From: a virus
Virus record (IMG/VR): IMGVR_UViG_3300045988_146009
Span: 4,816-68,815 of that record
DNA length: 64,000 nt
Strand: one strand, 5' to 3'
Shown here piece after piece: positions 1-64,000 of this stretch (positions are counted from its first letter, which is position 1; every line of letters starts with the position of its first letter). The notes under the pieces are model-generated. The model ran no database searches, had not been told where the DNA came from, and saw only the letters and a program-made list of their open reading frames with translations. The position numbers and the translations under genes were made by a program.

Positions 1-3000
1 GTAAGTATGACAAGAATGTCGAGATACAGGATTCCAACTGGGCCGCAGATGTGTTTAATATGGTGGGCGAAGGAATGCAACCTATTCAAAACGTGCTCGA
101 CGATGTTCTCAATACTGTTCAGGATGAAAGAACCCGGAACAATATTAAAGACATTGTAGAGTTCCTTGAGGAACGTGGAGTTCCGGTGAGCGTGGCTACC
201 ATTCAGGGGGACAGCAACATTGCTGGTCTCACGATGATGGACCCGTCCTCTCCAGAACAGCATATCGCTCTGAACTTTAGCGCGAAGAATGTAAAATCCT
301 CCCCTGCTGATGTCCTGCTCCACGAACTAACTCACGTTCTGGACAACCATCTGAGGGAGACAGACCCCCTGTATGCAGAACGCGTAGCAAGCATCGAAGA
401 AATTGTCCGCTCCAACTGGGCCAACATCCAGAAGGAAGCGGAACGGGTGGCTCGCACTGCTGTAACTGAGGAGGAGCAGGCTGAGATTGACCAGTTCATC
501 GCTGAGATGGAACAGGCTTTGTTCAACAAGCAGACTGAGTTTGAGGGTGGACGTGAGTTCCTTCCTAATGTAATTACCAACCCCATCATGGGAGAGGTGA
601 TTGCACAAGGCAATCTCCCGTTTGACCAAGCTCTCGACCAGTGGGCCTCCCCCAACAACCTTGCTCGAATCTCTCAGATTGGCAGAGGCAAGGTGAGCAG
701 GATTGTTCATAACCTCATTAATGCTGTGTCCTCCATCCTCAAGGGTGCCCAGGTTGTTGAAGGGAAAGTTAATCCCAACACCGCGGTTATTCGTGTGGAA
801 GAAGGAACCCTGGCTGACCCGACAAGGATGAAGATTGTCTCTCCGAAGCTGGCTGAATACAAGCCGGGAGTTGAAGACGAGAACGTATTCATTACGGACC
901 GCGGCGTTGATGCCGCCCTCTTCTCGTCCTCTGAGAACTTTGTCGGAGCAGGGAAGAGACTATTCCGGACGGCGAATGTCAAGGGTGGATTCACCGCTGA
1001 CAAACGTACTGGGAAAAAGGTTAAGGAATTCGCTGGTAACTTCCAGACTTACGTTAATGAACTTGTCGCACGAAACGAACGAACCAAGCGATATGTAACT
1101 CAGCAAACGAAGGGAATGGAAGACTCCGAACGGGCTACCGTCATCAACTCCATCGTGAACTACACGGGCGATTTGGGCAACACGCTCGACCCGAAGGTTA
1201 CTCGCCGTATCTTTGCGGAGACTAACAACAAGGTCGAACAAGCCAGGGTGGCCAGGGAGGCTGAGGTGGACGCGGCGAACAATGAGTACGCCAAGTTCAT
1301 TGCGGACCGGAGGAAGGCTATCATCCAGGCGGAGGCCAGGGTGAACGCCCTTGCCGGGACTCAAGCATTGCAGAATGTTGGAGTAGCTATTACCCAAGCT
1401 GTTCAGGTAGCTAAGGAAGTCCCCCAGGTGGACGAGAAGAACCCGATGGCTGTAGCCGCGGCTCGTTTCAGGAAGGCTCAGGAAGAACTCAACCCCGTGA
1501 TGAAAGAGATTTACAGCACGTTGGACGAGGACGCTAAGGCCGAAATGAACGAAGCGTATGATAAGACCATGAAGGCCATTGCGGAAGACTTGGCCCAGGA
1601 CTTCGACAACCCTGCTGAAATCGTACCGGGCCTTCTCAGTATCGGTGGACTTCAAAACGTTCCCAGTGTGGACGACTTGTCCGCAATGTTCACTTCGGTC
1701 ATCAAGGCCAACAGGCTGGGATGGTTGAAGAAGGATGCCGATGCTGTGCGTGCCGCCAAGGATATAACCGTAGCCCAGCAAGCCCGTAGAGAGCGCATAG
1801 CCCAAGCCGAAAAGAACTACCAGACGAAGGTAGGACGAGGAGGCATGAAGAATGGGGTATGGACTTCTCCTGGAACGGTATGGCTTGAGCGTGATGCGGC
1901 CATGCGTGCGGAGAAGAACCGGATGGAAACGGTATACGCCATGAAGAGGAATGAAGCCCGTAAGGAACTTCTCAAATATCCTTTTGGTGCCCGCCTGCTC
2001 AATGTGCTGGACGACAACCGAAGAGCTATTGCTACCATGGAAGCTAACCTGATGCAGAGAAGGGGTGCTATCGGACTCGGAACAAAGGTGAGGGACTTTA
2101 CCTACCTCTCCCGAACGTTTGCCGCGGTAGGAAAGGAGTCCATCAACTTCCGTAAGGCCATGATGGAACTACTGGACAGCAACGGCGAAGTGAAGCCGGA
2201 GTTTACCCACCTTGTAGGTATCCTAAACAATGCAATCCAAAGCTACATGAGAGAAAACATCTCCCGTTACAACCGGGGTATTTCGGAAACCCTCGACAAC
2301 ATGCTTGCTATGAGCAAGGTAGCTGATGAACTTGGTCTGGACGGTAGTGAATACCTTGGCTTCAAGGGAAAGGATGTATGGAAGAATGTAAGTGAATACC
2401 TGACGAAGGACCCGGCCCTGGCTGAGAGTGCTCTAAACACAATCAACAATGGTCACTGGAACGAGATTGCCAAGATGAAGGATGGCTCGGTTGAACTCCG
2501 TCTCATTATCAACAAGGCGAGCCAGCTAGATAACCTGCTCTCCTCTGCTGATGTTGGGGAGAAGAGCCGACTCCGTAGCAAGATGCGTAAGGCGAAGGCG
2601 GACCTGATGAACAAGGCGGCGGAAGACTATGTGCTTTCCAGTATGGGAGTAACCGATACTGACCTCCGCTCCTTCCTCCTCGGTCTAAATTCTCCGGAAC
2701 AAATCACGGAAGCATTCAAATCAACTCCCTACCTGGACTCAAGTGTAATCTCCAACCTGATGGGAACGGATGAAAACCTCCGAACCCGCATCAGCAACAC
2801 CATGGATTATGTGAGAAAGTCCACCGCTATTGAAATGCAGAAGCAGGGGGTAAACCTGACCGCTAACCAGCGGGACATGTCCCTTCTTGCTGATGGTGAA
2901 GTAGCGGATGCCCTGATAGCTACCGCTCGGAATGTGTTCAAGGAGACCCTATCCAAGGAGCGTAACGAAGAAAACATCTTCGCCAACCGTAAGAACCTGA

Positions 3001-5546
3001 TGGATAGTGAACTTCAAATTCTTGGAGTTCGCGGGTTCAGTAATCTCACGGATGCCTTCGGTGTTATTCAAAACACCTTGTCCTCCCAGGGCAGAGCCTA
3101 TGTCAACCAAGTAATTACGCATGACGTAGCAAGAAGCCTTGAAAGGCATGGGGTTGTTACCGGGGAGAGGACGAAGGAGAATACCCACCTGCTGGAATTC
3201 CAGAACAAGGCCAACCCGCTGAACGGAATGTATGCCGAAAGGGACATCGCCCTTGTCCTCTACCAAGCCATGCGACCTGACGAAGCAATTATGCGGGGTA
3301 AGGAATTTGGGAAGAAGTTGCAGAGCCATTGGGGTAACAACTGGGGAATGCTGAGAAGCATCGGTGGGTTTGTCTCCATGTTGACCCTGGTCCGTACTCC
3401 CTCCGCTACCCTCCGTAACATGGCGGGGACCATGGGGCAAAGCCTGAACGCAGGTGCTCTCCCGTTTGACAAGGGGGTTATCAAGGGATATGGGGAAGTG
3501 TACCAGCTTGCCCAGGACTTCGTTGTTGCAAACATTCTAAGTGCCGCGGGTTCCGTTGGTGTGAGGGGTGCAGTGAACAGTGAGATTATGGCGAACGCTG
3601 AGAAGCGATTCAACCAGTCCATGCAGAGGTATCGTGACCTTGGTCTGCTCGACGCGGGCGCGGCGAACTTCATGAAGGAACAGTGGAAGCAGGGGCTTAA
3701 TGAAATGAGCCAGAAAGAGGGCAGTGAAATCAGCTTGCCCGACGAGGACGCAATGTTCTCTTCGCTCGTATCGGAACTAGGAGACCGGAGCACTGCAAAG
3801 AAAGCGATGGACCTCGCCAAGCGCATTGCGTATGGTACGTTCGTTTCGCCTATGAGCGTTGCCGCTTCTGCTTACTCCGTCCCTGACGTTATCGCCAAGA
3901 TAATCCTCTTCAATGGGGAGAGCCACAAGGTAAGCAAGGTAGTGAAAGCCGAGCTCGCACAAGCTGAGAAGCTGAGTAGAGCAGGAAAGGAAGACAAGCT
4001 GACAAGCTACATGAAGGACGCTTTGGCCGCTAAGAAGGAAGGGACTCTTACTTCCTACATTGAACGTAGGGCGGCGGACAGGACGAAGAACCTTCTTCCC
4101 ACGGGGGCAAGAACCCCTGACTGGGTGAATAAGGTAAGCATCTTTGGGATGCCCTTCTTCTCCTTCATGTACCACACTTGGCAGAGTGTACCTTACAGCA
4201 TTGGCTACGGGATGGAAGAACTTCGCGCCGCAAGGTTTGCAACCAATACGGCAGATAAAGTCTCCCTCTACATGGATGCCACCCAAAAGTTTGGAGGTGC
4301 TATCCTGGGCCAGTATGCTATGATGGAACTGATGCGGTTTGCCCTTCCGATTGTTACTCAAGCAATCATGGGTATGGTCACGGGTGATGACGAAGAAGAC
4401 AAGATGCAGATGCTCGAAGCAAGTTCGTTTACCCGTTGGCTTGCACGGAATGCTGGACTCTCCGCGGACTACGACCAGAACGGAGAACTCTTTTTCTGGT
4501 TTGACAAGGATAATGAAACCTTCATAGTCCAGGATGGTCAGTACCTTCTGCCATATAAGAGCCTTGGTGAAACCCTGGGTGCTATTATCAACCTCGCTGG
4601 ATTGAATCCTTTCTCTGACAAGAGTGAGGCTAACCAATTCGAGGATGACTACACCGCCCAGCTTCTGGATTATGTTCAGAGCACGGCTGGTTCTCCCTCC
4701 ATGTGGATTCAAATGCTCATTGATATGGGTTCAAAGGAACCCCGTCAAAGCGCAGACCTGAAACAACTGGGTGGGGTATCAGCAATCCCGGAAGCCTTTG
4801 GGAATGCCCTGCTCATGAGCTTAGGACTCCGCCCTTCTGCTGAACTTGCGGGAGGTAGGACGCTCGACTGGATGGAAAGGATAGCTACGACTGTAAAGGA
4901 TAACCTCCCCCTATGGCCTACTCTGGTTCAGGGGGTGCAGACCTGGACAGGGATGAATCCGGATAGTGAAAAGGCAGGATGGTTGTTGAAGAACCTTGGC
5001 TTTGGTGTTCGTCGTCCCAAGAATATTAATGATGTCCTCCGGGACAGTCTTGCTAAAGGTAACAAGGACCTCTCCAATTCGTTGAAGAACCAGCGCATCA
5101 TGGATACCAACCTTTACACGGCTGACCTTAGCGATGCAGAGTATGACAAGATTATCGAAGCTGATAAGGCTATGGTAATTGAGCAGAGTATTTCCCTCGC
5201 TAATAGGTTCCTGGCGTTGAAGGGGTTCCTCAAGGGGATGGGAGTCAAGGACGTTGACACGGTTCTTGAAGCATCTGCTCAGGAGGCGGGCATATCGTTG
5301 AAGGCTATGGATGACCTTATCTCTGGCCGGGCCAAAGACTTCATCTCTAACCAGAGGTTTGACAAGATTGAAGAGACGAGAGACCGCTTGCTTAACAGGC
5401 CCGGTATTACTCCGGAAGCTAAGAAAGCCATCCTCCGCCAGTTCCAACAAGCTGAGAAGGTGTATGACATCGACGCAGTAGATATTACTTCCAGCTTGAT
5501 TGAGCCGGATAATGTGGAGCAGGAGGTGAAGAGCCAGAAGAGATAG
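1..5546 (+). CDS. giant virion-associated protein (tape-measure-like or ejected internal protein), 5'-partial; N-terminal zincin-like HExxH (DUF4157-like) motif
   Basis: 1831-aa ORF. The frame is open back to the window edge (first start-like codon GTG at 51). Motif ADVLLHELTHVLDNH at about aa 95. Long Ala/Lys/Glu-rich coiled-coil stretches and a Gly/Ala-rich hydrophobic middle. No DxDGD RNAP motif. The antisense ORFs inside it are short. Confidence 0.7.
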   Translation, partial: KYDKNVEIQDSNWAADVFNMVGEGMQPIQNVLDDVLNTVQDERTRNNIKDIVEFLEERGVPVSVATIQGDSNIAGLTMMDPSSPEQHIALNFSAKNVKSSPADVLLHELTHVLDNHLRETDPLYAERVASIEEIVRSNWANIQKEAERVARTAVTEEEQAEIDQFIAEMEQALFNKQTEFEGGREFLPNVITNPIMGEVIAQGNLPFDQALDQWASPNNLARISQIGRGKVSRIVHNLINAVSSILKGAQVVEGKVNPNTAVIRVEEGTLADPTRMKIVSPKLAEYKPGVEDENVFITDRGVDAALFSSSENFVGAGKRLFRTANVKGGFTADKRTGKKVKEFAGNFQTYVNELVARNERTKRYVTQQTKGMEDSERATVINSIVNYTGDLGNTLDPKVTRRIFAETNNKVEQARVAREAEVDAANNEYAKFIADRRKAIIQAEARVNALAGTQALQNVGVAITQAVQVAKEVPQVDEKNPMAVAAARFRKAQEELNPVMKEIYSTLDEDAKAEMNEAYDKTMKAIAEDLAQDFDNPAEIVPGLLSIGGLQNVPSVDDLSAMFTSVIKANRLGWLKKDADAVRAAKDITVAQQARRERIAQAEKNYQTKVGRGGMKNGVWTSPGTVWLERDAAMRAEKNRMETVYAMKRNEARKELLKYPFGARLLNVLDDNRRAIATMEANLMQRRGAIGLGTKVRDFTYLSRTFAAVGKESINFRKAMMELLDSNGEVKPEFTHLVGILNNAIQSYMRENISRYNRGISETLDNMLAMSKVADELGLDGSEYLGFKGKDVWKNVSEYLTKDPALAESALNTINNGHWNEIAKMKDGSVELRLIINKASQLDNLLSSADVGEKSRLRSKMRKAKADLMNKAAEDYVLSSMGVTDTDLRSFLLGLNSPEQITEAFKSTPYLDSSVISNLMGTDENLRTRISNTMDYVRKSTAIEMQKQGVNLTANQRDMSLLADGEVADALIATARNVFKETLSKERNEENIFANRKNLMDSELQILGVRGFSNLTDAFGVIQNTLSSQGRAYVNQVITHDVARSLERHGVVTGERTKENTHLLEFQNKANPLNGMYAERDIALVLYQAMRPDEAIMRGKEFGKKLQSHWGNNWGMLRSIGGFVSMLTLVRTPSATLRNMAGTMGQSLNAGALPFDKGVIKGYGEVYQLAQDFVVANILSAAGSVGVRGAVNSEIMANAEKRFNQSMQRYRDLGLLDAGAANFMKEQWKQGLNEMSQKEGSEISLPDEDAMFSSLVSELGDRSTAKKAMDLAKRIAYGTFVSPMSVAASAYSVPDVIAKIILFNGESHKVSKVVKAELAQAEKLSRAGKEDKLTSYMKDALAAKKEGTLTSYIERRAADRTKNLLPTGARTPDWVNKVSIFGMPFFSFMYHTWQSVPYSIGYGMEELRAARFATNTADKVSLYMDATQKFGGAILGQYAMMELMRFALPIVTQAIMGMVTGDDEEDKMQMLEASSFTRWLARNAGLSADYDQNGELFFWFDKDNETFIVQDGQYLLPYKSLGETLGAIINLAGLNPFSDKSEANQFEDDYTAQLLDYVQSTAGSPSMWIQMLIDMGSKEPRQSADLKQLGGVSAIPEAFGNALLMSLGLRPSAELAGGRTLDWMERIATTVKDNLPLWPTLVQGVQTWTGMNPDSEKAGWLLKNLGFGVRRPKNINDVLRDSLAKGNKDLSNSLKNQRIMDTNLYTADLSDAEYDKIIEADKAMVIEQSISLANRFLALKGFLKGMGVKDVDTVLEASAQEAGISLKAMDDLISGRAKDFISNQRFDKIEETRDRLLNRPGITPEAKKAILRQFQQAEKVYDIDAVDITSSLIEPDNVEQEVKSQKR

Positions 5547-12352: not shown

Positions 12353-13150
12353 TCATTCTCTTTCAAGAAACTTAATCTCGTCATATTTTGATTTGACTTT
12401 TTCAAGGAAGGATTTGAGCATAGCTTTTTCTAATTTGGTAGCCGTCCGTGGAAGTCTAAAATGATTCAGGGTTTGTCCTGTATGTCCTTTCTTTCCAGAG
12501 TTCTCGTTAACAAGAGATACCATAACAGGAATACGGGAGGTGTTGCTTACCCTAAAATAGGTGTGTTGGTCAGGTGTCCCGTTAATATCTACAAAATTTA
12601 TATCCTCAATCCTTTTCATAACTTCCTCAAATGTTTTGAAGATACTAATCTCGATGGCTTGAGAATGTGTAGTTGTTTCCCTGTAGAAAGTGAGAGCATA
12701 CTTGTCTTCTAGCTGTAGATAATGCACGGAGAAGGTTACATGGATTCCATTATCCTTACGGTTTTCCCTCTCAATAAAAGCCTTGGTTTCATCATATAGT
12801 TCGGTTACTTTCAGCCATTCGTCAAGAGAAGGAGGGCCCTCCCGGTATTCACCTATGAATACTTCGAGTTGTCCTATGTCGCTAAGACAAAGCTCAACCA
12901 GAACATGAAGATTCTTAAAACGAAGGAATTCTTTGGTGGCTTCTATCTCGTCTCCGTATGTACCAAAAGGAATTTTGTTCCTGCTCTTGCAAAACTTAAT
13001 GACATAATCCAATTTCCTATGACTCATAACCCCCAAAACTTTGAAGGAATACATGCCGGAAGAAGTCGTCTCTTCGGTTGCTACCCCCACATACTTTTTT
13101 GATTGAGGGTGATAGTACAGGCCAAAGGTAATGTGTTTCAGGTTCTTCAT
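12353..13150 (-). CDS. hypothetical protein containing two copies of the paralog-family domain
   Basis: The N-terminus MKNLKHITFGLYYHPQ and an internal HVTFSVHYLQLEDKYALTFYRETTT..FEEVMKRIED both match the family motif. The start could instead be at 13264 (109-nt overlap with the upstream gene). Confidence 0.5.
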   Translation of the reverse strand: MKNLKHITFGLYYHPQSKKYVGVATEETTSSGMYSFKVLGVMSHRKLDYVIKFCKSRNKIPFGTYGDEIEATKEFLRFKNLHVLVELCLSDIGQLEVFIGEYREGPPSLDEWLKVTELYDETKAFIERENRKDNGIHVTFSVHYLQLEDKYALTFYRETTTHSQAIEISIFKTFEEVMKRIEDINFVDINGTPDQHTYFRVSNTSRIPVMVSLVNENSGKKGHTGQTLNHFRLPRTATKLEKAMLKSFLEKVKSKYDEIKFLERE

Positions 13151-13155
13151 CTTAA

Positions 13156-13737
13156 TTACAGGGGCATTCTTGAAACGATAGTGAGTTCCTTGGAAAGAAT
13201 AACGGAGGCCCATGAGAGGCGCATATACTTTGCAAGTTCCGTCAGGAGGTTGAGGCTCAAACAAGCGGTATTTCCAAGCCGTCTTTCGGGCTCTACTCCG
13301 TTCTTGTCCAGACTGATACTAAGGTGAAGAGCAAGGAAAGCCAGGGCCAGCTTTGGAAGATTCTCACATTCCTTTAGAAGGCTTGCCACCTGCTTTTTGT
13401 CCAACGTTGAATAAGAACTCCTGTTCTCCATGTCAATACCATGGCCGTGAATCTTGGCAAGGTTTTTATTGTAGCAATGCAAGGCGCGGGTGAATGAAGA
13501 GTTGAATACATGGTTCAAGTCCTTCCGGTGTTCACTACAGAACTCAATGGGGTTCTCAACCCGGCACAAAGTAATAGCATCCTGAATCAGAAATGCCTTA
13601 GAAGTTGCGGGAACCATAAGGCCAAACAATACATTTTCAGGCGTTGTTTTTTCAGTATAGGCCCGTTCAATAAGAGTCTTGCTGGTTCCTTCTTCGGTAA
13701 AGTTGAATTCGTTTTTGGAAATATTATCGTTCATCAT
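13156..13737 (-). CDS. hypothetical protein
   Basis: 193-aa ORF. Confidence 0.45.
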   Translation of the reverse strand: MMNDNISKNEFNFTEEGTSKTLIERAYTEKTTPENVLFGLMVPATSKAFLIQDAITLCRVENPIEFCSEHRKDLNHVFNSSFTRALHCYNKNLAKIHGHGIDMENRSSYSTLDKKQVASLLKECENLPKLALAFLALHLSISLDKNGVEPERRLGNTACLSLNLLTELAKYMRLSWASVILSKELTIVSRMPL

Positions 13738-13896
13738 TTTTATATAGGTTATTAAGTAGGTTAATGTTGCTTTTAGGATTCTGTAGTTGCAGGATGGATT
13801 TTCTAAAAAATAGAATGAGGGCTAGGCTAGCTGGAATCAATACCGCCAGAATGGACATGAATGCTATTAACAGTAGAACCAAGAAAAGAATCTTCA

Positions 13897-14475
13897 TCAT
13901 AGAGTTATCTTGCTTGTGTCAAGTTTGTTCTTCAAATAATCCAGTTCACGGGGGGTTAACTTGTTAAATTGGAACACCTTAATTCTTTGTTCGTCAAGCA
14001 TAAGAGGCTCTTTATCATTAACAATAAGCCTTCTCTCCTTGTTGAGGGGTTTCCGGGTTATGGTGTTGATTTGTGAAAGAGTCCGCATAGCCACCCCGAA
14101 AGATTGCGCTTGAAAATGCCTGATTATTTTGTAAGTTGTACTATTATAAATCTGGACATACAATTTAGAGTCAGGCAAGCGGTGAATGCTGAAACTCTTT
14201 TCCGGAGACATAGGCGTAATTTGGTAGTCAATAATTAGGGAATCCCCTTCACGGACTACAAAGCCGTCAGTCAAATTCTCCAGCATTAAGTGCGCCATGG
14301 AGATAATGCAAGGTACTGGATTGGCAAACCACACTTTCATTTTGTAATGGCAATTATATTCAGTCTTCATCTGCGTGCAACTAGGACCATATACCCTCAC
14401 ATCCTTACTACTGAAATAACAGAGGGTTAGAAGTTGAGACTGCCATGCACGAAGGCAGTTCATTTTATTGGTCAT
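13897..14475 (-). CDS. hypothetical protein
   Basis: 192-aa ORF. Confidence 0.5.
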   Translation of the reverse strand: MTNKMNCLRAWQSQLLTLCYFSSKDVRVYGPSCTQMKTEYNCHYKMKVWFANPVPCIISMAHLMLENLTDGFVVREGDSLIIDYQITPMSPEKSFSIHRLPDSKLYVQIYNSTTYKIIRHFQAQSFGVAMRTLSQINTITRKPLNKERRLIVNDKEPLMLDEQRIKVFQFNKLTPRELDYLKNKLDTSKITL

Positions 14476-14758: not shown

Positions 14759-15432
14759 TTTGCAAAGAAGTTAGACGTTGACCGGATATAGGGGCGGGTA
14801 TAGTGCAGTCTCATGTTAGGGTAAACTTCCTTTTCCAATACGTCTTCCAACTCATAAGAGCTTTTCAAAACTTTCTGAATAAGGACTTTGGCTTTTTCTA
14901 CCGCTTTAGAATGGTTCTTGAAAGCTTCTTCAATCTTGACAAGCTCACTGTTCACGAAGTTTATGCACTTGTCCAGTTCCGTTTTAAAGTTAGGGTTAAG
15001 CCGTCCATTTTGCGAAGTGGTAATACCCTCCAGAACATACCGTTCATAACGGGAACTCCATGTGTCTTCCCCGTAAATATCCTTAACTCCGGTAGGGAGC
15101 ATGACGCGCAGGGAAATAGCGGGGAAGAAGGTGCGTGAAGAATAGTTGTCTACGCTTCCCGGAGCAAGGACGCTTGCCCCTCTAACATAATCATCTCCTC
15201 GGAAGTGCCTATTGAGAATATGACTAACATTACTCCAATCCTTTTCCCTCATAACCTTAAATTCGCCTGACTTTGTTTTAAAATCTGGACTGTCAAAAAC
15301 GACTTTGAGATATTCAAGTGCATCCTTAAGCCGTTCATAGAAATATTGAAGTCCTTTCAAGTCACGCATGGCCTTATCATCTTCTTCAACGAATTTCCGA
15401 ATAAAGTAGTTCATCATATCATTATTATTCAT
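14755..15432 (-). CDS. hypothetical protein
   Basis: 225-aa ORF, ATGA-coupled to the downstream gene. Confidence 0.55.
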   Translation of the reverse strand: MNNNDMMNYFIRKFVEEDDKAMRDLKGLQYFYERLKDALEYLKVVFDSPDFKTKSGEFKVMREKDWSNVSHILNRHFRGDDYVRGASVLAPGSVDNYSSRTFFPAISLRVMLPTGVKDIYGEDTWSSRYERYVLEGITTSQNGRLNPNFKTELDKCINFVNSELVKIEEAFKNHSKAVEKAKVLIQKVLKSSYELEDVLEKEVYPNMRLHYTRPYIRSTSNFFAK

Positions 15433-20096: not shown

Positions 20097-20789
20097 TTAT
20101 CTCTCCGCATGTTCTTTTACCTTGTCACGTTTAACCAACGGCAAGACGGGAGGAAACACCCCGCTTGCGTAGTCCTCCCGGCTAACTCCCTGCCAAGCAT
20201 AACCTTTGTATGTAGGCTGACGGCGTTTTACTACGTTGTTAATTCCAGCCGCTAACCCCTTTACCGCCCGCGCCGCATCCCAGTAACTAGGATACATGGT
20301 GATAGGCTCCAGGGTTTCCCGGTTTATCTGCATGACGGGCCGCGCGGATTTGTGCAATCCCTTTTCAATGTTCCCCTTCAATGTCTTTTTCCGTTTTTTC
20401 ACGCAGTTACCGTAACGTATGTTTTCCCGGTGAGTACACCATTGCAGATTCTCCGCACGGTTGTTCATGGGGTTTTCATCTAAATGGTTTACATCTAACT
20501 CGCTTATTTTGTACCCTTTAAGATGCGCGCCTAACGGCACAAACGCACCCGCAACAAGGCGATGAACATAATATTTATAGTGCCATCCTCCCTTTTCATC
20601 CAGCAAGGGAACATATTTATAACCGTTCCGGCTAGTCTGGATGCGTAAAAGCCTGTTGACAAGCTTGCTCCACACCGCGCCCATGTTACTCACAAGGTAC
20701 AATTCCCTGCAACCTTTCAGCGGTACAGGTTCCCACAGTTCCCCCGGTCTAGTACATTCAGCTAGTGTCTTCTTCTCCTTCTTCTTCAC
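20097..20789 (-). CDS. free-standing HNH homing endonuclease
   Basis: ELDVNHLDENPMNNRAENLQWCTHRENIRYGN is a classic HNH_3 His-Asn-Asn-His core. The N-terminal region resembles the NUMOD4/AP2-like DNA-binding part. Confidence 0.75.
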   Translation of the reverse strand: MKKKEKKTLAECTRPGELWEPVPLKGCRELYLVSNMGAVWSKLVNRLLRIQTSRNGYKYVPLLDEKGGWHYKYYVHRLVAGAFVPLGAHLKGYKISELDVNHLDENPMNNRAENLQWCTHRENIRYGNCVKKRKKTLKGNIEKGLHKSARPVMQINRETLEPITMYPSYWDAARAVKGLAAGINNVVKRRQPTYKGYAWQGVSREDYASGVFPPVLPLVKRDKVKEHAER

Positions 20790-20974
20790 TTATCAATCCC
20801 TTTCCTGCTTTTAATCCCTTTCAATTTCTCTCCTAATTCTTTAAGCCGCGCTTCTTCTTCCGTAAGCTTTCGATTCCCCTGCTTAATCCCTCGGTTTATG
20901 CGCCTAAAATCCTCGGAGAGTTTATCCAGTTTCCGCCTCAACTCTATAAACTGTTCGGTACTGTTAATTGCCAT
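20786..20974 (-). CDS. small coiled-coil protein
   Basis: 62-aa ORF, ATGA-coupled to the HNH gene, Lys/Glu/Arg-rich helix. Confidence 0.35.
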   Translation of the reverse strand: MAINSTEQFIELRRKLDKLSEDFRRINRGIKQGNRKLTEEEARLKELGEKLKGIKSRKGIDK

Positions 20975-21399
20975 GTCTCCTTTATATAGTAGGCACGCCG
21001 TTTTTCAAGCTTTTTGTGCGCCATTTCCCCGCTTTTCAAGCTTTTTATAGTGTACCGCAATTGTTGCGTTAGCCCTAAAAACTGCACCATTACTGTTACT
21101 TTTGGCTTTCTTTGGACTTTCTCCCGAATTCCTTCGCACAGAAAGGGGCCTATAAGGGCCTTTTGAGCAGGGAGCCTTACTATTATACCCGGCGATTTTG
21201 CCCGCCCGTATACGCAAACCTCATGCGTTTTATTTTCGCCAATTCCGCACTTTTCGCCCTAAACGTACTAAGTGCACCTAAAATGGTACATAAATCATCC
21301 ATTCGTAACGGAAAGAGTACTATTCACTTTTTATACAACTGTATACATTCTGGCATTTCGTACCGTTATAGGTACTGGTTCGTATCATTTCCGTGCTAT

Positions 21400-22100
21400 A
21401 CGCCCTAAACGGTCTTCCCGTTCGTGTAGGGAGTAATGGGCATTTCGTCCTTTTCGTTCGTGTAGGGCGTGGAGTCTGCTACGTCATTCCGGTCCATGTA
21501 GTGCATTCCGTTCACTTCGTTCTTCCGTCCTTCTGGTCCATGTAGTTCGATTAGGGCGTGTAGTGCGTATAGCTCCATCTAGGGCATTCCATCCTTTCAG
21601 TCCCTATAGTTCGATTAAGGCATTCCGTTCACTTCGTCCTTTAAGTCCGTATAGTGCGTTTAGTGCGTTTAGTGCGTTTAGAGTTTTACATTTTTGTAAA
21701 ATATCAACATATCATGATGTGTAAATATGTTGTTTCCTATTGACCCCTTCACTACATATCGGGGCATATAATGGGAGAGACACACTATATGTAGTGTTCT
21801 CTGCTCTATCAGGCACCAATCATTTTGACGAATATCAAAATGTAAAACTAAAAATTTATACGTTTGAGAGGTTTTGTATAAAGATTATATACACTTGTAT
21901 ACAAAGTGAGAGTAAAAGGTATTTGTTTCCCATTGGCACCATACATCATGTAGTGCCTATTGGTTACGGGAACACTACATACAGGAGTCATGATAACATA
22001 TCTACATATCATGATATGATGATGTTTTACATTTTTGTAAAACTAAAAGGAGAGAAGCCTCTTCTGTTTCCTATTGACCCCTTTATATTTCAGAGCAGGG
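21400..22100. repeat. iteron / palindrome-rich control region (candidate replication origin)
   Basis: Direct repeats TTCGTTCGTGTAGGG (21416, 21463) and GCATTCCGTTCACTTCGT (21513, 21620). Tandem 10-mer TAGTGCGTTT x3 (21652-21681). Recurring ATGTAGTG. Palindrome TTTTACATTTTTGTAAAA at 21685 and 22026. TGTTTCCTATTGACCCCTT at 21730 and 22065. CATATCATGAT at 21708 and 22004. Inverted repeat CACTACATAT...ATATGTAGTG at 21750-21796. Confidence 0.6.
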
Positions 22101-22339
22101 AAATTCCAACACTCCGGACTTCACGCACTAAACGTCACTTTACGTTCTAAGTCAACACGTTACGCATATCCGCAACCGATTAGGCATTACAAACGTTTCT
22201 CGAAATTATCTCTTAAAAAACAAATGTTATTTCATAGTACGTATTGATTATTAGGGACTTACGTTTTCAATGTCGTACATAAACGTAATGATAATATTAG
22301 TTCAGAAAGGTACGCTATCGGCGTAGAATACAATAAGCC

Positions 22340-22720
22340 CCCTGAAAAAGGTACTTGAATCGGTGCATTTCGAGCGTGAAAATCGCTTAGAACGTGAAGG
22401 ACACCACGACGGTGACTCCCCCTTCGAGCGTAACGCGCTCATTAGTAAATCATTAGGTCACATTTTTCCGGAAATGGGGTTTCTGCTTTTTCAAAATGGG
22501 CCCCATGCCGAGGGGACACCACGGGTCTCGATTGCCTTTTCCTGCTCCGGCGTGGGCCTAAAATAGGCGAGAGGGGGTACGTATGGACAGACTGTACGTG
22601 AACGGGGGTGTGAGGGGCCTTCTATGGGCCTACGCATAGGTGAGTGCGGTTGAGGTCATTTAGCCCGGAAGGTCCATATTGGGATGGAAATTCCTGAACT
22701 ATTTTCATAACTGCCTCAGT
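22340..22720. other. GC-rich non-coding island with internal direct repeats (possible structured RNA or protein-binding array)
   Basis: No credible ORF (the 67-aa ORF at 22363-22566 is low-complexity). Repeats: GGACACCACG x2, TTCGAGCGT x2, TGGGCCTA...ATAGGYGAG x2. Local GC is much higher than the flanking DNA. Confidence 0.35.
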
Positions 22721-22789
22721 GATAATCATTTTATGGAGCAGGGAAGTCCAAATAATCCGATTGTGTGATGATGTGTATATTTTGAATAC

Positions 22790-23005
22790 GAGATAACTTC
22801 ACTCTCCAGGTTACGCCCTAAATCCTTAATTTTTAATAATATATAAATACTGTGTACTATGTAATATCTAATTACTATATAGAGGTATAAAAATATTTAT
22901 TATTTAATATAAAAATAATACCAAAAAAGAAAAGAAGAAAAGACGAAATTGAAAAAGTAAAAAAAAATAATTCTAGGTCTATATGGGGGAGGGGGGAATA
23001 ACAAC
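22790..23005. other. extremely AT-rich tract (about 85% A+T) ending in a G-tract (GGGGGAGGGGGG), a DNA-unwinding-element candidate
   Basis: Visible base composition. Contains A9 and A6 runs. Confidence 0.5.
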
Positions 23006-23358
23006 ACACACTATGCCCCTTTTTTTCACTGCTTGTATTTACATATTAAAGGGTTATGGTGTGAAAAGACACGTAAATATCGTGAATACGCATCTGCACA
23101 CTTTTTGATACAGTAACACAAGTTTTCACCACGTTATCCCAAATTTATACCTGTTTTAACCCCATTTTGTACATTACCATTATATCTTGGGATATTCTGT
23201 TATTCTCTAAAAAACACCAAATCGAATCGCCCTACACGCCCTAATCGTACCTAAGCGGACCCTATCGCACTCCACGTTCTCTACGTCCTCTTCCTCCCAA
23301 AACCCCCTCTTCGCCCCTCTCCTCCCCAACTTTTTCTCTCCGCACACGCAAATTTAGG

Positions 23359-23387
23359 TTGACTCTTTCTCTGCTACCTGCTATATC
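23359..23387 (+). promoter_or_regulatory. candidate sigma70-type promoter (TTGACT, 17-nt spacer, TATATC) about 80 nt upstream of the primase-helicase gene, inside a polypyrimidine tract
   Basis: The sequence is visible, but its relevance depends on the host sigma factor. Confidence 0.25.
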
Positions 23388-23466
23388 TCTCCCACACGCG
23401 AAGGACCTGTTTTACCCCTTCGCACCACCAAATGCCACATCCTATGTGGCCAAACACTAATCGAAC

Positions 23467-26400
23467 ATGAACCCCGTAGAATACGATAAGCCCACTTCGG
23501 GCGGTACGGACCTGACCATTGTAGCCTTGTCTGCTCAGTCATGGTCCACCTGTTATAGACGGAATACAGCCCGCCGAGCCCATGTGGGGAGTTGTAAAAA
23601 CCCCGCACTTCTCCCATTTTCCAAGCTGGCAAGCTTCCTGCAAAGTGGAGATAACCATAATCTTTCCCTGCTCGAAGAAGTAAGCAATCAAATTTCAGTA
23701 CACTACTGTATCTCAAATGGTATTAAACCTGACGAAGTTGAGGGCATTTTGCCGGACGGGGTGTACAGTTATGGCTTGAAAAGCTTGAGCGGGATGGAAA
23801 AAGAGGAGGCGGCGAAGATTTCAAAAGCCCACCTCCCGGCTATTGTCCCCTCTGTTATTTTCGACCCTTCCTACAGCTATGCCGACATGTCCCCGAAGAA
23901 AGCCGTCTCCTACTACGGCGAAAGCTGGAAGCATACCGGAGTCTTCGGATTTGACATTGACCTGGGCAAGGACGGCAACACGGACGATGCGGACGAGTTG
24001 TACGATATGGGCGTTTCTTTCTTTTCCACCCTGCCGGGCTTCCTGCTCCTGTTCCGCAGTCCCAGCGGTGGATTGAAGGTGCTCATACAGGTAGACGGAG
24101 CTACGCGGGTTCGGTTGAACGAAGGAAGTAACGAAGGAAGAATTGCGTTGCACAAGGCCATCTACAAGCGGATTAGCGAGGGGATTAACGAGAGTGCCCC
24201 GTTTATTCTTGATTCCCGCACCAACGATGTAGCCCGGATTCAGTACCTTTACCGGGAACCGGGCTACGTATATGTACCATCCGAATTAGATTCGAATGGT
24301 ACATACTCGGGGTTGGGCCATTGGGATGCACGGGATATTTATGCGGAGAAGGATGCGGATTCCCTCCATTTGCTGGACGAAGAAAACCGAAAGGCTTTGC
24401 CTTCCAGCTTGTTGGGCTTTATATCCTACCTGCACGATACGGGCTACACGAACTACGCGGAGCACCTGGAAGGTAATCTCGTAGGGTATGCGGACGGGTT
24501 CAAGTGTTCCTGCCCCTGCTGTGTTGAAGAAGCGGGAGGGCAGGTAGGCAATATGGACTTGTGGTTCATACCGGGCGACGGGGACATGAATACGTGGAGA
24601 GTGACCTGCTTCCATGAGAGCTGTAAGACCGGGAAGGGCACTAAGACCGGGAAGGACATTACCAGCATGGCCGAGCTATACCGCGGGTATGAGAGCTATT
24701 TAAGCGAGAAGGTAAGCAACCTAACTAGCGAAGCGGTAGCCTCGGCGAAGGAAAAAGAAAAGGAGCCGGAAGAAGGGGAAGAAAATATAGCGTTCGATTA
24801 CATGCGGGACTACATTACCTCCCTGCTCCAATCCAACAGCAAGACCCGTTACCGGGTGAACCCTCCTTACAGCACTGAGCAGATACTTGAGGGCGCGAAG
24901 CCCTGGGCTGGCAAGCTTATCATGGAAGAATATACCGTGAAGAGCAAGGGCCGCCCGAAGAAGGGAGAAGAAGGAGAAGAGGGCGGCGAGAAGAAGGAAA
25001 GGCCCGCGATTTGCCGGGAGAACCTTGAAATCATCCTTGCTGAATGCTTTGACATCTTCGTTACCTACAATACTGTTTCCCAGGAATACTGGGCGATTGA
25101 TACCAAGAACAGGTACGTATCCAACTGCTATAGTATCGACCAGTTCCGGAAACCGCTGGCCTATGCTGTTCATGAGTTCGTGTACAAGCCGTTCGGGGTA
25201 GCCTACGGGATGGTGGATGTTGAGCTTGAACGCGCCCTTCCAGTCATCGGCAATAGCCATTACTTCAATCCATTCCTGAAAATGATTGAGTATGATGATT
25301 GGGATGGGAAGGAGGACCGGGTGGGGAGGTTTATTGACATCCTCATTTCGGCGGTTGACCCGGCGTGGAGCCTTGATGGTGGAAGCGGAGAACTTCTGAA
25401 CAAGATAAAGGCAGACATCGAACGGGACCCGAAGGGGGCTGAGAAGATTGGTTTGACCGAAGCCCTGGTGGACCCGAAGGAATACACGAGGGAGGTGATG
25501 AAGACATTCCTCGTTTGTGCCTACCGGAAATACATACATGGTTGCGAACCCCACATGTACACCAAGGCCGAGGAGCACGACAACATGTGCCCTGTAATTT
25601 ATGGTGAGCAGGGGGTGGGGAAGAACACGCTGATTGAAAGTCTTGTTACCGTGCTTGGTGAAGGCTATCTGTGGAACCCTTCCGGCCTCCGTGACATCAG
25701 TGGGGATAACAAGGACAACAACATGAAGGCTTCCTCCTGCCTTATTGCCCACCTGGACGAAGTGGACAAGTATACTGAGGGGGAAGAAGCGATTAGCACG
25801 TTGAAGCAGGTCATCACGAGCAAGACCAACAAGATTCGTCTTCCTTTTGCCCGGCACTTGCAGGACCTCCCTGTAAAAGTCAGCTATATCGGAAGTACGA
25901 ACAAGAGTGCTTTCCTGCTTGATGCCAGCGGAAACCGACGCTTCGCTACCATCATCACCAAGGGGGGCTACAACATGAATGAAATCCAGTGGCTACGTGC
26001 TACCAACATCTGGCCCCAGGTAAAACGGATGGCGGAAGAAGACGAGAACGTAGGCCGCTACGGGTGGTACAAGCTACAGAAGATAACCGAGCATAACAAC
26101 TCAACGAACGTAATGAGCGAAGGGACCGATGTGGCCTTACTGGAACTTCTGGTTGATGCCAGCGACATCATGGATACCAAGGGCCACATTCTTCTTCGTC
26201 ACGTTAGTCAGGAGTTCTCCAACTACACGACAATCCTGGAGACCCTACGCTCTATGCAAGGGTCTACCAAGCGTGTTACCCGGAACGATGTAATGAGATT
26301 TACGAACGACATCATCAAAAAGTACGAGTTGAGCGATAGGTCCGATTTGTACAAGAGGGTCCGAAAGACTCTTTCCGGCAAACGCCCAGGTTCCACTATC

Positions 26401-26487
26401 AGCAAGGTTGTCAACCAACCCTCCTTCATCCCTGCTTTCCTGTATGAAGAGATGGTCGCCGAAGGCTTGGCACCGAGAATACGCTAA
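23467..26487 (+). CDS. DNA primase-helicase: AEP-like primase region + Cys4 zinc-binding motif + SF3/D5-type NTPase
   Basis: 1006 aa. Zinc motif CSCPCC...CFHESC. Walker A VIYGEQGVGKNT, Walker B IAHLDEVDK, SF3 motif C YIGSTNKSAF. Possible catalytic acid cluster FGFDIDLGKDG upstream. Confidence 0.6.
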   Translation: MNPVEYDKPTSGGTDLTIVALSAQSWSTCYRRNTARRAHVGSCKNPALLPFSKLASFLQSGDNHNLSLLEEVSNQISVHYCISNGIKPDEVEGILPDGVYSYGLKSLSGMEKEEAAKISKAHLPAIVPSVIFDPSYSYADMSPKKAVSYYGESWKHTGVFGFDIDLGKDGNTDDADELYDMGVSFFSTLPGFLLLFRSPSGGLKVLIQVDGATRVRLNEGSNEGRIALHKAIYKRISEGINESAPFILDSRTNDVARIQYLYREPGYVYVPSELDSNGTYSGLGHWDARDIYAEKDADSLHLLDEENRKALPSSLLGFISYLHDTGYTNYAEHLEGNLVGYADGFKCSCPCCVEEAGGQVGNMDLWFIPGDGDMNTWRVTCFHESCKTGKGTKTGKDITSMAELYRGYESYLSEKVSNLTSEAVASAKEKEKEPEEGEENIAFDYMRDYITSLLQSNSKTRYRVNPPYSTEQILEGAKPWAGKLIMEEYTVKSKGRPKKGEEGEEGGEKKERPAICRENLEIILAECFDIFVTYNTVSQEYWAIDTKNRYVSNCYSIDQFRKPLAYAVHEFVYKPFGVAYGMVDVELERALPVIGNSHYFNPFLKMIEYDDWDGKEDRVGRFIDILISAVDPAWSLDGGSGELLNKIKADIERDPKGAEKIGLTEALVDPKEYTREVMKTFLVCAYRKYIHGCEPHMYTKAEEHDNMCPVIYGEQGVGKNTLIESLVTVLGEGYLWNPSGLRDISGDNKDNNMKASSCLIAHLDEVDKYTEGEEAISTLKQVITSKTNKIRLPFARHLQDLPVKVSYIGSTNKSAFLLDASGNRRFATIITKGGYNMNEIQWLRATNIWPQVKRMAEEDENVGRYGWYKLQKITEHNNSTNVMSEGTDVALLELLVDASDIMDTKGHILLRHVSQEFSNYTTILETLRSMQGSTKRVTRNDVMRFTNDIIKKYELSDRSDLYKRVRKTLSGKRPGSTISKVVNQPSFIPAFLYEEMVAEGLAPRIR

Positions 26488-31290: not shown

Positions 31291-31575
31291 ATGAACCAAC
31301 GAAAGAAACTTCAAAAAGAACTTACCGCCAATCGGATTTCAATGCGCCACCTGAGACGGTTGGCGTATAGTCTTGAATCCAAGGGAGATTTAACCGCTAC
31401 GCAGTGCATCATTGTAAACAACAAGATTCCCCTTTTCTTCAATTTCTCTCCTTCCATTCCCGTCAACTTCAAACCCATCTACCCCTTCATTTACAATCAC
31501 GCTTATTGGATGAAGGACAAAAAGGACTGGGCTTTGACCTGCTACGAAGACGACAGTTATGCTTACAATAAATAG
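31291..31575 (+). CDS. hypothetical protein
   Basis: 94-aa ORF. Confidence 0.4.
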   Translation: MNQRKKLQKELTANRISMRHLRRLAYSLESKGDLTATQCIIVNNKIPLFFNFSPSIPVNFKPIYPFIYNHAYWMKDKKDWALTCYEDDSYAYNK

Positions 31576-31576
31576 T

Positions 31577-32299
31577 ATGGATACTTCTAGTGAAATATGG
31601 GGGATTATTAAGGATTTCCCGAATTACAGTGTAAGCACTTTAGGAAGAGTAAAAAATAACCTTAGTGGGAAATTGTTGTCACTTTCAACTTCTCAAGGAG
31701 GATATTATTTTGTAGCTCTATATCGAAATAATGGTGGAGATAAAAAATATCTTCGGGTAAATCGTCTGGTGGCGATGACGTTTATTCCGAATCCTCATAA
31801 TAAATCTCAAGTAAATCATATAGATGAAAATAAAAAGAATAATAGATGGGATAATTTAGAATGGACTACACCTACGGAAAATAGAAATCATGGGACAAGT
31901 ATTATTCGTTCAGCAAAAAGTCTCAGTCCCGCGGTTGTCCAATATTCTTCAACAGGTTATTTTATTGCAGAATACCCAAGTGCTGTGGAAGCAAGAATAG
32001 TTACAGGAGTATCTAATTTAGCCATTGCTAAATCATGTAGAAAAGAAAGGGCGATGGGGGGAGGCTATCAATGGAGAAAAAGGGAGGATGATTACCCTCT
32101 TCAAATTGAATCCGCAGTTGGACCTATTAAAGCGATACTTAAATATAGCCCTACAGGGGAACTTCTTTGGATATATTCAAGTATAAAAGAAGCGAGCGAA
32201 GATACCACGGCTACTCTTTCAAATATTGTAAGTAATATAAAAGGAAGGAAGAGTGTAAAAACAGTAGGGGGCCACATTTATAGAGAGGAAATAGTATAA
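31577..32299 (+). CDS. free-standing HNH homing endonuclease (AT-rich relative to its neighbours)
   Basis: VNHIDENKKNNRWDNLEWTTPTENRNHG HNH core. N-terminal IWGIIKDFPNYSVSTLGRVKN is NUMOD4-like. Codon usage is visibly more A/T-rich than the flanking replication genes. Confidence 0.75.
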   Translation: MDTSSEIWGIIKDFPNYSVSTLGRVKNNLSGKLLSLSTSQGGYYFVALYRNNGGDKKYLRVNRLVAMTFIPNPHNKSQVNHIDENKKNNRWDNLEWTTPTENRNHGTSIIRSAKSLSPAVVQYSSTGYFIAEYPSAVEARIVTGVSNLAIAKSCRKERAMGGGYQWRKREDDYPLQIESAVGPIKAILKYSPTGELLWIYSSIKEASEDTTATLSNIVSNIKGRKSVKTVGGHIYREEIV

Positions 32300-63059: not shown

Positions 63060-64000
63060 ATGGCTACTGAAAACATTACAAAGAAAGAAGACCCCGCCGC
63101 CGCGGCAAACGTGGCTACAGGAAAAAGAAATCGTGAGGCTGTGTTGAAGGACATCGCACCCGCTACCAATCCTAATGTCCCCATCCGACCCACGACAAAC
63201 AATGACCCAGGAAAACCCCTGTCTCCGGAACAGCAAGCTCCTATCGCTCAATCTAATTCTAACATGGGGATTCGTCAAGGTCTATCCTCTTCTCCTGCTG
63301 TTCCTACTCGGCCAGCGGGTTCCCCCAGCAGAGAACCTCTCAACCAAGCAAGCCAAGGAATAACTCCTGCTCCTGGGACAGCACCAGAAGATGAAGGAGA
63401 CAGGGACGTAATCATGACTATGGATAGAGCCACCCTGAATGAGTACCGAAGAAACACCAAACTCACCGAAGCTCAGAAAGCTATTGCCGATGAAGCCGCC
63501 TTCAAATTCATGGAAGGGTCTCACCCCCTCCAAAGCCAGCAGGATAAAGAACTTCTTTCCAGTGCTGTCAATCCTAATACTCCTGAATACGCGAGGCAAC
63601 AGCAACTTACATACCAGCAGGGTATTCAAAGGGCGGCCAGGGAGGGGCTGAGGCCAGGGGAGGTGGAAGCTCTTACCGGGTTTGACCAAGTAGTAACTCG
63701 CCAGAAGCCTTCCCCTCTCCCCACCATTCCTGGAACTTCTCCTATTACAGATACGATTCCTCCCCCGAGTACGGGACTTCCCAGCGACGAAGTGTTGCTA
63801 AGTGACCTAAGCGAACTAGTCAAAAAACAGGGGAAGGATATTGCTACCCTCAGCGAAGGGGCAAGGAATGAGATGTTTGCACAATACAAAGCCATGAGGA
63901 ATCGTCAGGCTCAAGCCGTTGAGAGGGGGAGGGGCACTACGCCCGCTACGCCCGCTACGCCCGCTACGCCCGCTACGCCCGCTACGCCCGCTACGCCCGC
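63060..64000 (+). CDS. Pro/Ala/Ser/Thr-rich protein, 3'-partial, ending in a (TPA)n repeat
   Basis: Open frame from the ATG at 63060 to the window edge. It is absent from the ORF track because it has no stop. The terminal 9-bp tandem ACGCCCGCT has at least 6 copies. Confidence 0.45.
   Translation, partial: MATENITKKEDPAAAANVATGKRNREAVLKDIAPATNPNVPIRPTTNNDPGKPLSPEQQAPIAQSNSNMGIRQGLSSSPAVPTRPAGSPSREPLNQASQGITPAPGTAPEDEGDRDVIMTMDRATLNEYRRNTKLTEAQKAIADEAAFKFMEGSHPLQSQQDKELLSSAVNPNTPEYARQQQLTYQQGIQRAAREGLRPGEVEALTGFDQVVTRQKPSPLPTIPGTSPITDTIPPPSTGLPSDEVLLSDLSELVKKQGKDIATLSEGARNEMFAQYKAMRNRQAQAVERGRGTTPATPATPATPATPATPATP
63945..64000 (+). repeat. 9-bp tandem repeat ACGCCCGCT (at least 6 copies, continuing past the window edge)
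   Basis: Directly visible at the window end. Confidence 0.9.

Follow-up and report, generated by a model that had tools for sequence, protein, structure and literature searches.

Experimentally established origins of replication are, to our knowledge, available for very few phages, and the abundant uncultured phages of the gut are not among them. Classical iteron origins (lambda O, plasmid Rep) have iterons of 17-22 bp, usually in three to seven copies. The alpha primase-helicase of the satellite phage P4 is the initiator of that phage, and binds TGTTCACC octamers at ori and crr. Papillomavirus E1 and SV40 large T are superfamily 3 (SF3) helicases that form two opposed hexamers on a two-fold symmetric origin, in which an AT-rich palindromic centre of ~18 bp is flanked by short repeats. 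The ribbon-helix-helix (RHH) protein omega of pSM19035 coats contiguous 7-bp heptads in either orientation. The Rep proteins of Staphylococcus aureus pathogenicity islands (SaPIs) are self-loading SF3 helicase initiators whose C-terminal winged helix binds short iterons, and in SaPI origins an AT-rich region is flanked on its two sides by 6-12 such iterons, at least two per side having opposite directions (PMC9371898). Lastly, the non-coding region of the Vibrio cholerae phage-inducible chromosomal island-like element (PLE) contains four repeat families, one subset of which is the RepA-bound origin (PMC7145576). Here we describe a non-coding gap of 2.5 kb, densely occupied by short repeats, in a phage known from metagenomes; it was analysed within a stretch of 64 kb (positions 4,816 to 68,815 of IMG/VR record IMGVR_UViG_3300045988_146009), referred to hereafter as the window.

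We consider the chances about even that this gap is an iteron-type origin of replication combined with an early-promoter control region. The strongest argument for this putative origin is a two-fold symmetric arrangement, namely a forward array, an AT-rich palindrome and a reverse array, that is kept across phage lineages beside the gene of a candidate SF3 initiator. A first-pass annotation, made from the sequence, had marked positions 21400-22100 as a candidate origin. That proposal is supported in part: the architecture and the neighbouring SF3 gene speak for it, and the G-C skew lends it no support. The functional unit, however, should be taken as the whole gap, 20975-23466, and not as 21400-22100.

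The annotated gap extends from a leftward open reading frame (ORF) of 62 aa, the first leftward ORF, at 20974, to the rightward gene of a primase-helicase. Within it, 21409-23380 is the sole part of the window where 250 nt or more are free of ATG-initiated ORFs of at least 60 aa, so that the region had rightly been described as the only long non-coding stretch. It had also been placed correctly at a divergence point, as the gap separates a leftward early operon of ORFans from a rightward replication operon. Hidden protein genes were considered and rejected, tblastx conservation between distant relatives being independent of reading frame; gene-caller ORFs of 54 and 41 aa in the gap are without conserved counterparts and were likewise rejected as genes.

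From left to right, the left half of the gap comprises two reverse units, ~30 forward units, a first palindrome, an AT-rich insert, a second palindrome and 4-5 reverse units. The right half comprises a conserved core block, a GC-rich stretch, an extreme AT-rich tract, 6-7 reverse units, a promoter-like site and the ATG of the primase-helicase (23467). The individual features are these:

21257-21411, minus strand: two isolated reverse 9-mers CGTTTAGGG, at 21257 and 21403, found by matrix scan to the left of the array
21414-21683, plus strand: main array of ~30 head-to-tail degenerate 9-bp units, consensus CRTTTMGTS
21682-21731, no strand: left arm of a 50-nt inverted repeat; contains palindrome copy 1 as well as the leftward promoter-like site TTTACA-16-(TG)TATTTT (21725 to 21698)
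21684-21701, no strand: interrupted palindrome copy 1, TTTTACA-TTTT-TGTAAAA, directly abutting the last array unit
21731-21749 and 22065-22083, with a degenerate third copy at 21924-21942, plus strand: 19-nt direct-repeat box TGTTTCCTATTGACCCCTT
21750-21797, no strand: inverted iteron-like pair CACTACATAT ... ATATGTAGTG, bracketing TATAAT at 21767-21772
21947-21981, no strand: second inverted iteron-like pair, CATGTAGTG, 17 nt, CACTACATA
21993-22020, plus strand: rightward promoter-like site ATAACA-16-(TG)TATGAT, beside palindrome copy 2
21995-22044, no strand: right arm of the 50-nt inverted repeat, with palindrome copy 2 (22025-22042)
22109-22152, minus strand: reverse cluster of 4-5 units facing the main array; on the minus strand CGTAAAGTG, CGTTTAGTG, CGTGAAGTC, CGGAGTGT
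22392-22491, plus strand: clade-wide core block GACACCACSACGGT ... TAAAT ... ATTTTTCCGGAAA, conserved at the nucleotide level
22776-22975, no strand: extreme AT-rich tract with a GC content of 18-25% and the lowest duplex stability in the window (z ~5)
23228-23290, minus strand: reverse cluster of 6-7 units of 9-10 bp, just upstream of the primase-helicase promoter-like site
23359-23387, plus strand: sigma-70-like promoter candidate TTGACT-17-TATATC ahead of the primase-helicase, read by eye and absent from the list of the promoter scan
23467-26487, plus strand: primase-helicase of 1006 aa, candidate initiator

The main array stands out statistically. Its identity at a lag of 9 nt is 0.519, whereas the best lag of 2000 shuffled sequences reaches 0.313 +/- 0.016 (z = 12.7), and it gives the highest lag-9 signal among the 271-nt windows of the 64 kb, the runner-up reaching 0.416. 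The register is constant over 270 bp save for two slips, of -1 and of +1. Units of a 'TAG' subtype (CRTNTAGKG) are interspersed with units of a 'TCGT' subtype (CWTTYCGTY), and there is a super-period of 36 bp, with a lag-36 identity of 0.48. The scattered repeats that had been listed for 21414-21683 are thus fragments of a single array that was overlooked in the first reading. What had been called a threefold tandem 10-mer is really a 9-mer in ~3.3 copies (21652-21682), and among the direct repeats one 18-bp pair is exact (21503/21620), as had been claimed, while the other exact pair measures 13 bp rather than 15. The ATGTAGTG box, for which at least five copies had been counted, is indeed present three times in forward (21496, 21789, 21948) and twice in reverse orientation (21750, 21973), with a single further copy in the whole window; these boxes are members of the TAG subtype. 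A CRISPR-like array (clustered regularly interspaced short palindromic repeats) was rejected because the units are 9 bp long and spacers are absent.

A position-weight matrix built from the array was then used to scan for further units. Forward units were found at 21423-21666, and the top matches beyond the array were all in reverse orientation, at 21257 and 21403 as well as at 22117-22136 and 23230-23268; in the cluster at 23228-23290, 23 nt are 91% complementary to array units. These matches bear on one alternative, that the array is a functionless minisatellite generated by replication slippage in a tolerated spacer. The three perfect copies at 21657-21683 do resemble recent slippage, and unit sequences turn over between lineages. 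However, the degenerate units hold their register over 270 bp, matching units occur inverted at three other places, four independent samples yielded the gap at 100% identity, and the presence, position and orientation of the array are kept across lineages whose proteins are only 24-45% identical. Of the explanations considered here, we regard this one as the least probable.

Between the forward units (left of 21684) and the reverse units (right of 22108) lie 425 bp with a GC content of ~28-39%, which include the second-least-stable 200 nt of the window (21848-22047). The palindrome TTTTACATTTTTGTAAAA occurs here at 21684 and 22025 and has no other copy in the window. The first-pass annotation had reported it as an 18-bp perfect palindrome present twice, 341 bp apart; copy number and spacing are right, but the palindrome is interrupted, with 7-bp arms around a non-symmetric 4-nt centre (7-4-7). 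Each copy is contained in one arm of an inverted repeat of 50 nt (21682-21731 / 21995-22044, 84% complementary), and the 263-bp AT-rich insert between these arms holds both inverted iteron-like pairs. The first pair encloses the TATAAT at 21767-21772, in agreement with the inverted repeat described there earlier. The CATATCATGAT box is found at 21708 and 22005, on opposite sides of the two palindrome copies; the two boxes are mirror images because each palindrome copy sits in one arm of the inverted repeat. The earlier statement that the same boxes flank both copies is therefore correct as to the presence of CATATCATGAT and TGTTTCCTATTGACCCCTT, and is to be qualified as to their placement, CATATCATGAT being mirrored and TGTTTCCTATTGACCCCTT repeated directly. 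Both arms also carry promoter-like sites, whose putative assignment as promoters we infer from their sequence.

It is this central segment that brings in the main rival explanation, purely transcriptional control. The 9-mer arrays would then be cooperative operators for a small regulator, for example an RHH protein, acting as the switch of the diverging early promoters; a conserved dimeric regulator, possibly one of the host, would have its operator in the palindrome; and replication would start elsewhere. The region lies exactly at the divergence of the operons, with the minimum of the A-T skew (21807) in it, the start sites predicted for the two mirror-image promoter-like elements coincide with the palindrome copies, and the iteron-like inverted pairs enclose a TATAAT. 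On the other hand, promoter-like hits occur at the frequency of shuffled sequence (9 versus 7.2 +/- 2.8), a contiguous stretch of sites of 270 bp is very long for an operator, and no small DNA-binding protein of the RHH or helix-turn-helix type was detected among the flanking ORFs with Pfam, PHROG or NCBIfam, while the neighbours on the left are not conserved between lineages. Nor does transcriptional control explain the extreme AT-rich tract and the two-fold symmetric layout beside an SF3 gene. We therefore consider it unlikely that transcription is all that this region controls, although the transcriptional and the origin readings are compatible with each other.

The right part of the gap contains the most deeply conserved non-coding sequence of the clade. 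This core block, which can also be written ACCACNACGGT...TAAAT...TTTTCCGG and has the clade form ACCACSACGGT ... TAAAT ... TTTTCCGG over ~90 nt, is present once per genome and always upstream of the primase-helicase. A preference for one reading frame was absent from the block, and it gave no supported consensus RNA fold (-3.4 and -4.9 kcal/mol, with few covarying pairs). Further to the right, the AT-rich tract at 22776-22975 is a candidate unwinding element. The promoter candidate at 23359-23387 has counterparts in two related loci introduced below, TTGACT-17-TATGGT in L005 and TTGACA-16-TATAAT in L008. Searches of the gap for boxes of the host initiator DnaA (TTWTNCACA) found none, four being scattered elsewhere in the window; sites of the integration host factor (IHF) type have no match in the 64 kb, and the ATCAATGAGTTAT motif of the relatives is at chance level in the window. 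We also noted that 22322-22343 in the gap is identical at 20 of 22 positions to 23475-23496, i.e., codons 3-10 of the primase-helicase (CGTAGAATACAATAAGCCCCCT versus CGTAGAATACGATAAGCCCACT); this match may reflect chance, a remnant or regulatory pairing.

Conservation of a 2.5-kb gap without coding capacity might also reflect an element that acts as RNA. In this case the array would be part of a ~700-nt leader of the leftward early operon, or of a non-coding RNA made from the region, and its motifs would bind or sponge an RNA-binding protein. The leftward promoter-like site at 21725 to 21698 would indeed read through the array to the ORF at 20974, and the repeats on the minus strand are rich in GGA and ACG motifs. 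Yet the Rfam search gave no hits at the gathering score, with only sub-threshold hits at chance level when thresholds were relaxed; folding energies are like those of shuffled sequences (z = -0.53 and -0.33); the core block is without a supported consensus structure; and the occurrence of units in both orientations is a better fit to recognition as DNA than as RNA. We consider an RNA-level role highly improbable. A search for transfer RNA genes found nothing.

The primase-helicase is the only gap-adjacent protein that is conserved across lineages. Its regions were delimited from an alignment of eight orthologues. The conserved N-terminal region is primase-like, with a D-x-D motif followed by a Cys/His zinc motif; the Pfam domain BT4734-like_N, also primase-like, was detected in four relatives only (E = 3e-5), and not in the protein of the window. 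A VapE-like SF3 helicase domain follows at residues 669-861 (E = 1e-22), with Walker A (GxQGxGKN), Walker B (hLDEhD) and motif C (GSTN), and after it a C-terminal region of ~180 aa. The helicase domain matches Protein Data Bank (PDB) entry 7pds, described as 'similar to D. nodosus VapE', with E values of 2.8e-9 (single sequence) and 7e-19 (profile), and also matches the NrS-1 primase-helicase. Judged by these matches, the helicase domain is homologous to the self-loading initiator Rep of SaPIs.

Related phages were reached through homologues of the DNA polymerase (PolA identities of 64%, 45%, 43% and 41%), and a profile scan of viral contigs then added 20 further loci; loci are numbered here with the prefix L. 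A first scan of viral contigs with a single protein had found nothing, and retrieval of primase-helicase homologues, with a single sequence as well as with a profile, returned only the query's own cluster. A scan of metagenomes for the repeat pattern itself was too permissive, 119 of its 120 loci being attributable to chance. The relatives form four or five lineages, in which PolA is 41-64% and the primase-helicase 24-39% identical to that of the window. Wherever the upstream sequence of a relative was long enough, its orthologous primase-helicase is directly preceded by a non-coding gap of 2.5-3.7 kb, and each lineage has contiguous short-period arrays of 8-9 bp with a unit of its own. For comparison with the window unit CGTTTAGTG, these are:

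L005: CGTAGCGT/CGTTTAGT, close to the unit of the window
L008: CGTGGATTC, reverse GTACCCACG
L010: the 8-bp unit GATTCAAC
L142: CGGGGGTTC/TCAACGGGT, plus a 17-bp x5 and a 19-bp x8 array

The orientation of the units is shared: forward units occupy the left, and reverse units occur right of the centre and, a second time, just before the promoter of the primase. In L008, reverse units are also present to the left of the forward units, as in the window. The promoter-proximal reverse units were seen in L005, L008 and L009, whose sequences extend to the ATG of the primase, and at greater distance in L142 and L146; an AT-rich or (TA)n tract precedes them in the relatives. The palindrome, as TTTTACA-N3/4-TGTAAAA with a variable centre, is kept in the L005, L010, L141, L142 and L151 lineages, and sits between convergent arrays in L010, L005 and L142. 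The arrangement is clearest in L010, where forward units at 144-253, the palindrome at 309-326 and reverse units at 344-373 occur together and the palindrome lies within an inverted repeat of 30 nt (80% complementary). The core block is single-copy in all lineages with enough upstream sequence (L005 3994-4094, L010 605-700, L008 2797-2900, and L141-L154). An absence of these repeats from related phages had been named as a finding that would count against an origin; in fact arrays, orientation, palindrome and AT-rich tract are all retained. The repeats are thus conserved as architecture while the sequence of their unit turns over.

Several further features were noted in the relatives. The L005 lineage is the only one with DnaA boxes in the gap: L005 2574-4823 and its equivalents in L014 and L136 contain 14 TTTCCACA boxes, all within the gap, seven of which fit the relaxed DnaA box TTWTNCACA. 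These boxes form two modules of ~400 bp that both include a 149-nt repeat and an AT-rich tract. The motif TATCAATGAGTTA, which fits the IHF consensus WATCAANNNNTTR, is present 2-5 times per gap in L005, L136, L008, L009, L142, L146 and L153; most of each locus's hits are in the gap, often beside the AT-rich tract or the palindrome. Tandem iterons of classical length accompany the 9-mers in L142 (672-953) and L008 (2307-2374), as 17 bp x4-5 and 19 bp x8. In L010, a gene of the IS605-family OrfB/TnpB type (Cas12f-like) is inserted in the replication/recombination module (13043-14281).

The comparison adds to the case for purely transcriptional control in three ways. Reverse units lie directly upstream of the primase promoter in every lineage that covers this stretch; the gap of L008 has four repeats containing good leftward TTGACA...CATAAT promoters; and the palindrome stays constant while the iterons diverge, as expected for the site of a conserved regulator.

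It also bears on a further alternative, that the region is centromere-like or terminal, i.e., that its repeats are partition sites for a protein such as ParR, omega or TubR, terminase (pac/cos) repeats, or repeats next to the direct terminal repeats of a linear genome. Contiguous short repeats, direct and inverted, are in general a hallmark of type II/III centromeres and of T7-like terminal-repeat arrays. In addition, five independent near-complete contigs of 60-68 kb (the starts of L143, L144, L145, L147 and L155) end within ~100 nt of the same homologous point in the gap. This point lies inside a (TA)n/AT-only tract (L146 ~1975-2070; L142 ~3032-3099). Such recurrent ends at a (TA)n/AT-only tract, or at the 149-nt internal duplication, are typical assembly break points, and in other contigs of these lineages the gap is spanned without a break; the ends are thus probably a sequencing or assembly drop-out and not true termini. 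ParA, ParM, TubZ, ParB and integrase were not found among the scanned ORFs, the gene content looks virulent, and the candidate terminase and structural genes are, by gene order, more than 12 kb away. A centromere, packaging or terminal function is accordingly very improbable in our judgement.

We return to the proposed origin. Kinship with SaPI-type origins is supported because short iterons, opposed orientation around AT-rich DNA and an adjacent SF3 gene are all found here. The primase-helicase of the window (23467-26487) is 36% identical to that of L005 (5078-8056), against 64% for PolA; therefore, the putative initiator evolves unusually fast. This fast divergence fits what may be expected of a specificity-determining initiator whose sites change as well.

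A number of observations weigh against an origin. The cumulative GC skew, a check suggested with the original proposal, has its G-C extremes at 14821 (maximum) and 63766 (minimum), and the one feature nearby is a shallow local dip at 23714, beyond the flagged span; the A-T minimum at 21807 is inside the span and tracks the switch of coding strand. The least stable DNA (22776-22975) also falls outside 21400-22100. One SaPI-type feature is absent, an origin immediately downstream of rep: here the repeat region is upstream of the gene by 1.3-2 kb, and the main array is 1.8 kb from the ATG. The ~30 contiguous units are far above the 6-12 of SaPI origins, and head-to-tail packing of 9-bp units is atypical of initiator sites. 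Conservation is deepest in the palindrome and the core block, neither of which is an iteron, and the palindromes with their flanking boxes look more like mirror-image promoter/operator elements than like iterons. The promoter-like hits, which the combined origin and control region would include, are not enriched over shuffles. As for the initiator, no winged helix could be recognised in the C-terminal region: the single-sequence AlphaFold model of residues 823-1006 was unusable, with a predicted local distance difference test score (pLDDT) of 41, and the profile search of this region against the PDB gave only hits with E > 0.2, none credible. Finally, the co-divergence of iterons and primase is inseparable from plain phylogeny.

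If the gap is an origin, it would most likely belong with those of self-loading SF3 initiators such as SaPI Rep/PriRep, P4 alpha, papillomavirus E1 and SV40 T antigen, and a sequence-specific protein encoded by the phage would bind the opposed sets of iterons. The best candidate is the adjacent primase-helicase, which might do so through its C-terminal region. Two oppositely oriented complexes would assemble, open the intervening AT-rich DNA and begin to make primers. Through the iterons that surround the TATAAT and precede the primase promoter, replication would be linked to the control of early transcription in an autoregulatory loop, with feedback on early and initiator transcription as in iteron plasmids. 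Both the identity of the binding protein and the melting and priming within the gap we infer by analogy with the described systems. There are two candidate start sites, namely the palindrome module, inside the flagged span, and the extreme AT-rich tract with the promoter-proximal reverse units, outside it. A more elaborate possibility, which we think rather doubtful, is that the region is an undescribed composite origin/enhancer of this clade. In this scheme the arrays would nucleate a helical filament of the BT4734-N/VapE primase-helicase, the palindrome and core block would be the site of loading or priming, common to all lineages, and specificity would be swapped by co-evolution of array and initiator.

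The genome around the gap is that of an uncultured phage that looks virulent from its genes. The window covers 64 kb out of a genome of ~68.8 kb that has been assembled repeatedly from metagenomes of the human-gut type; an identical primase-helicase is present in 17 contigs, and the non-coding region is 100% identical among the four contigs read, which come from independent samples. Comparison of the gap DNA with 50,697 GenBank phage records gave no match. The closest deposited phages are ~24-25% identical in both PolA and primase-helicase, so that there is no close cultured relative. The genes at 6.3-21.0 kb are leftward and nearly all ORFans, except for one GNAT domain, one DUF3310, one DUF6926/zinc-ribbon protein and a NUMOD4-HNH endonuclease; among the ~20 larger leftward ORFs scanned, there was no integrase, repressor or ParA/ParB. 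The rightward genes from 23467 onwards encode the primase-helicase, a family A DNA polymerase, a second HNH endonuclease, an SNF2-type helicase and a DUF2800/PD-(D/E)XK nuclease. The two NUMOD4-HNH genes resemble homing endonucleases; one (20097-20789, minus strand) borders the repeat region and the other (31559-32299, plus strand) follows the polymerase gene, and their presence and position differ among relatives. An ORF of 1831 aa at the end of the rightward late region (51-5546) has no Pfam or PHROG match. At the opposite end of the window, the 9-mer ACGCCCGCT is repeated in tandem, without mismatch, seven times or more at 63930-64000; the copies continue past the window end and give the top small-scale lag-9 signal in the window. 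In frame they encode Thr-Pro-Ala repeats, and they probably lie within a structural or tail gene.

Were the proposed origin correct, opposed short-unit arrays, a palindrome, an AT-rich tract and a VapE-type neighbour would together provide a signature by which the origins of primase-helicase phages could be recognised in metagenomes. The paradigm of the self-loading helicase, as in SaPIs, P4 and E1, would extend to large virulent phages, and the five unit types would constitute a natural series of swaps in iteron/initiator specificity. Under any function, the core block and the palindrome are concrete cis elements that can be tested.

How does this locus compare with the systems outlined at the outset? 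The likeness to SaPIs consists in short multi-copy iterons in opposed directions on both sides of an AT-rich segment, and in a VapE-type SF3 helicase initiator that is fused to or paired with a primase. The phage units, however, are 9 bp long and arranged head to tail as ~30 + 5 + 7, whereas those of SaPIs are 5-6 bp long and number 6-12; and the phage region lies upstream of the initiator gene, spans 2.5 kb and has extra conserved elements, whereas the SaPI origin lies immediately downstream. With P4 the phage shares a single primase-helicase polypeptide as initiator (here a candidate) and sites of the 8-bp class in separated clusters, in both orientations, over kilobases. There is no detectable sequence relationship between the sites or the DNA-binding domains, and the P4 clusters have ~6 sites rather than contiguous arrays of 30 units. 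The succession of forward units, 18-bp AT-rich palindrome and reverse units has the same symmetry as the E1 and SV40 origins; in the phage the flanking arrays are much longer, the virus is bacterial and its initiator candidate has a fused primase-like domain, and the palindrome is a putative site of binding or melting. PLE is similar in having a multi-repeat non-coding region in a mobile element, only some of whose repeats form the origin, and differs in that its initiator is a RepA_N protein. Omega and ParR-parC, whose repeat arrays are coated cooperatively, provide a parallel in contiguous 7-11-bp repeats, direct and inverted, near promoters (weakly called in the phage), but no RHH protein and no partner of the ParA/ParM/TubZ type is detectable near the phage array. 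Classical iteron origins differ in unit length, the window having a 9-bp unit with a 36-bp super-period. Relative to the known origins of self-loading SF3 initiators, the phage locus is thus unusual in its head-to-tail array of 30 units of 9 bp and two subtypes, in its multiple opposed clusters across 2.5 kb, and in a palindrome and core block that are conserved through a clade of uncultured phages.

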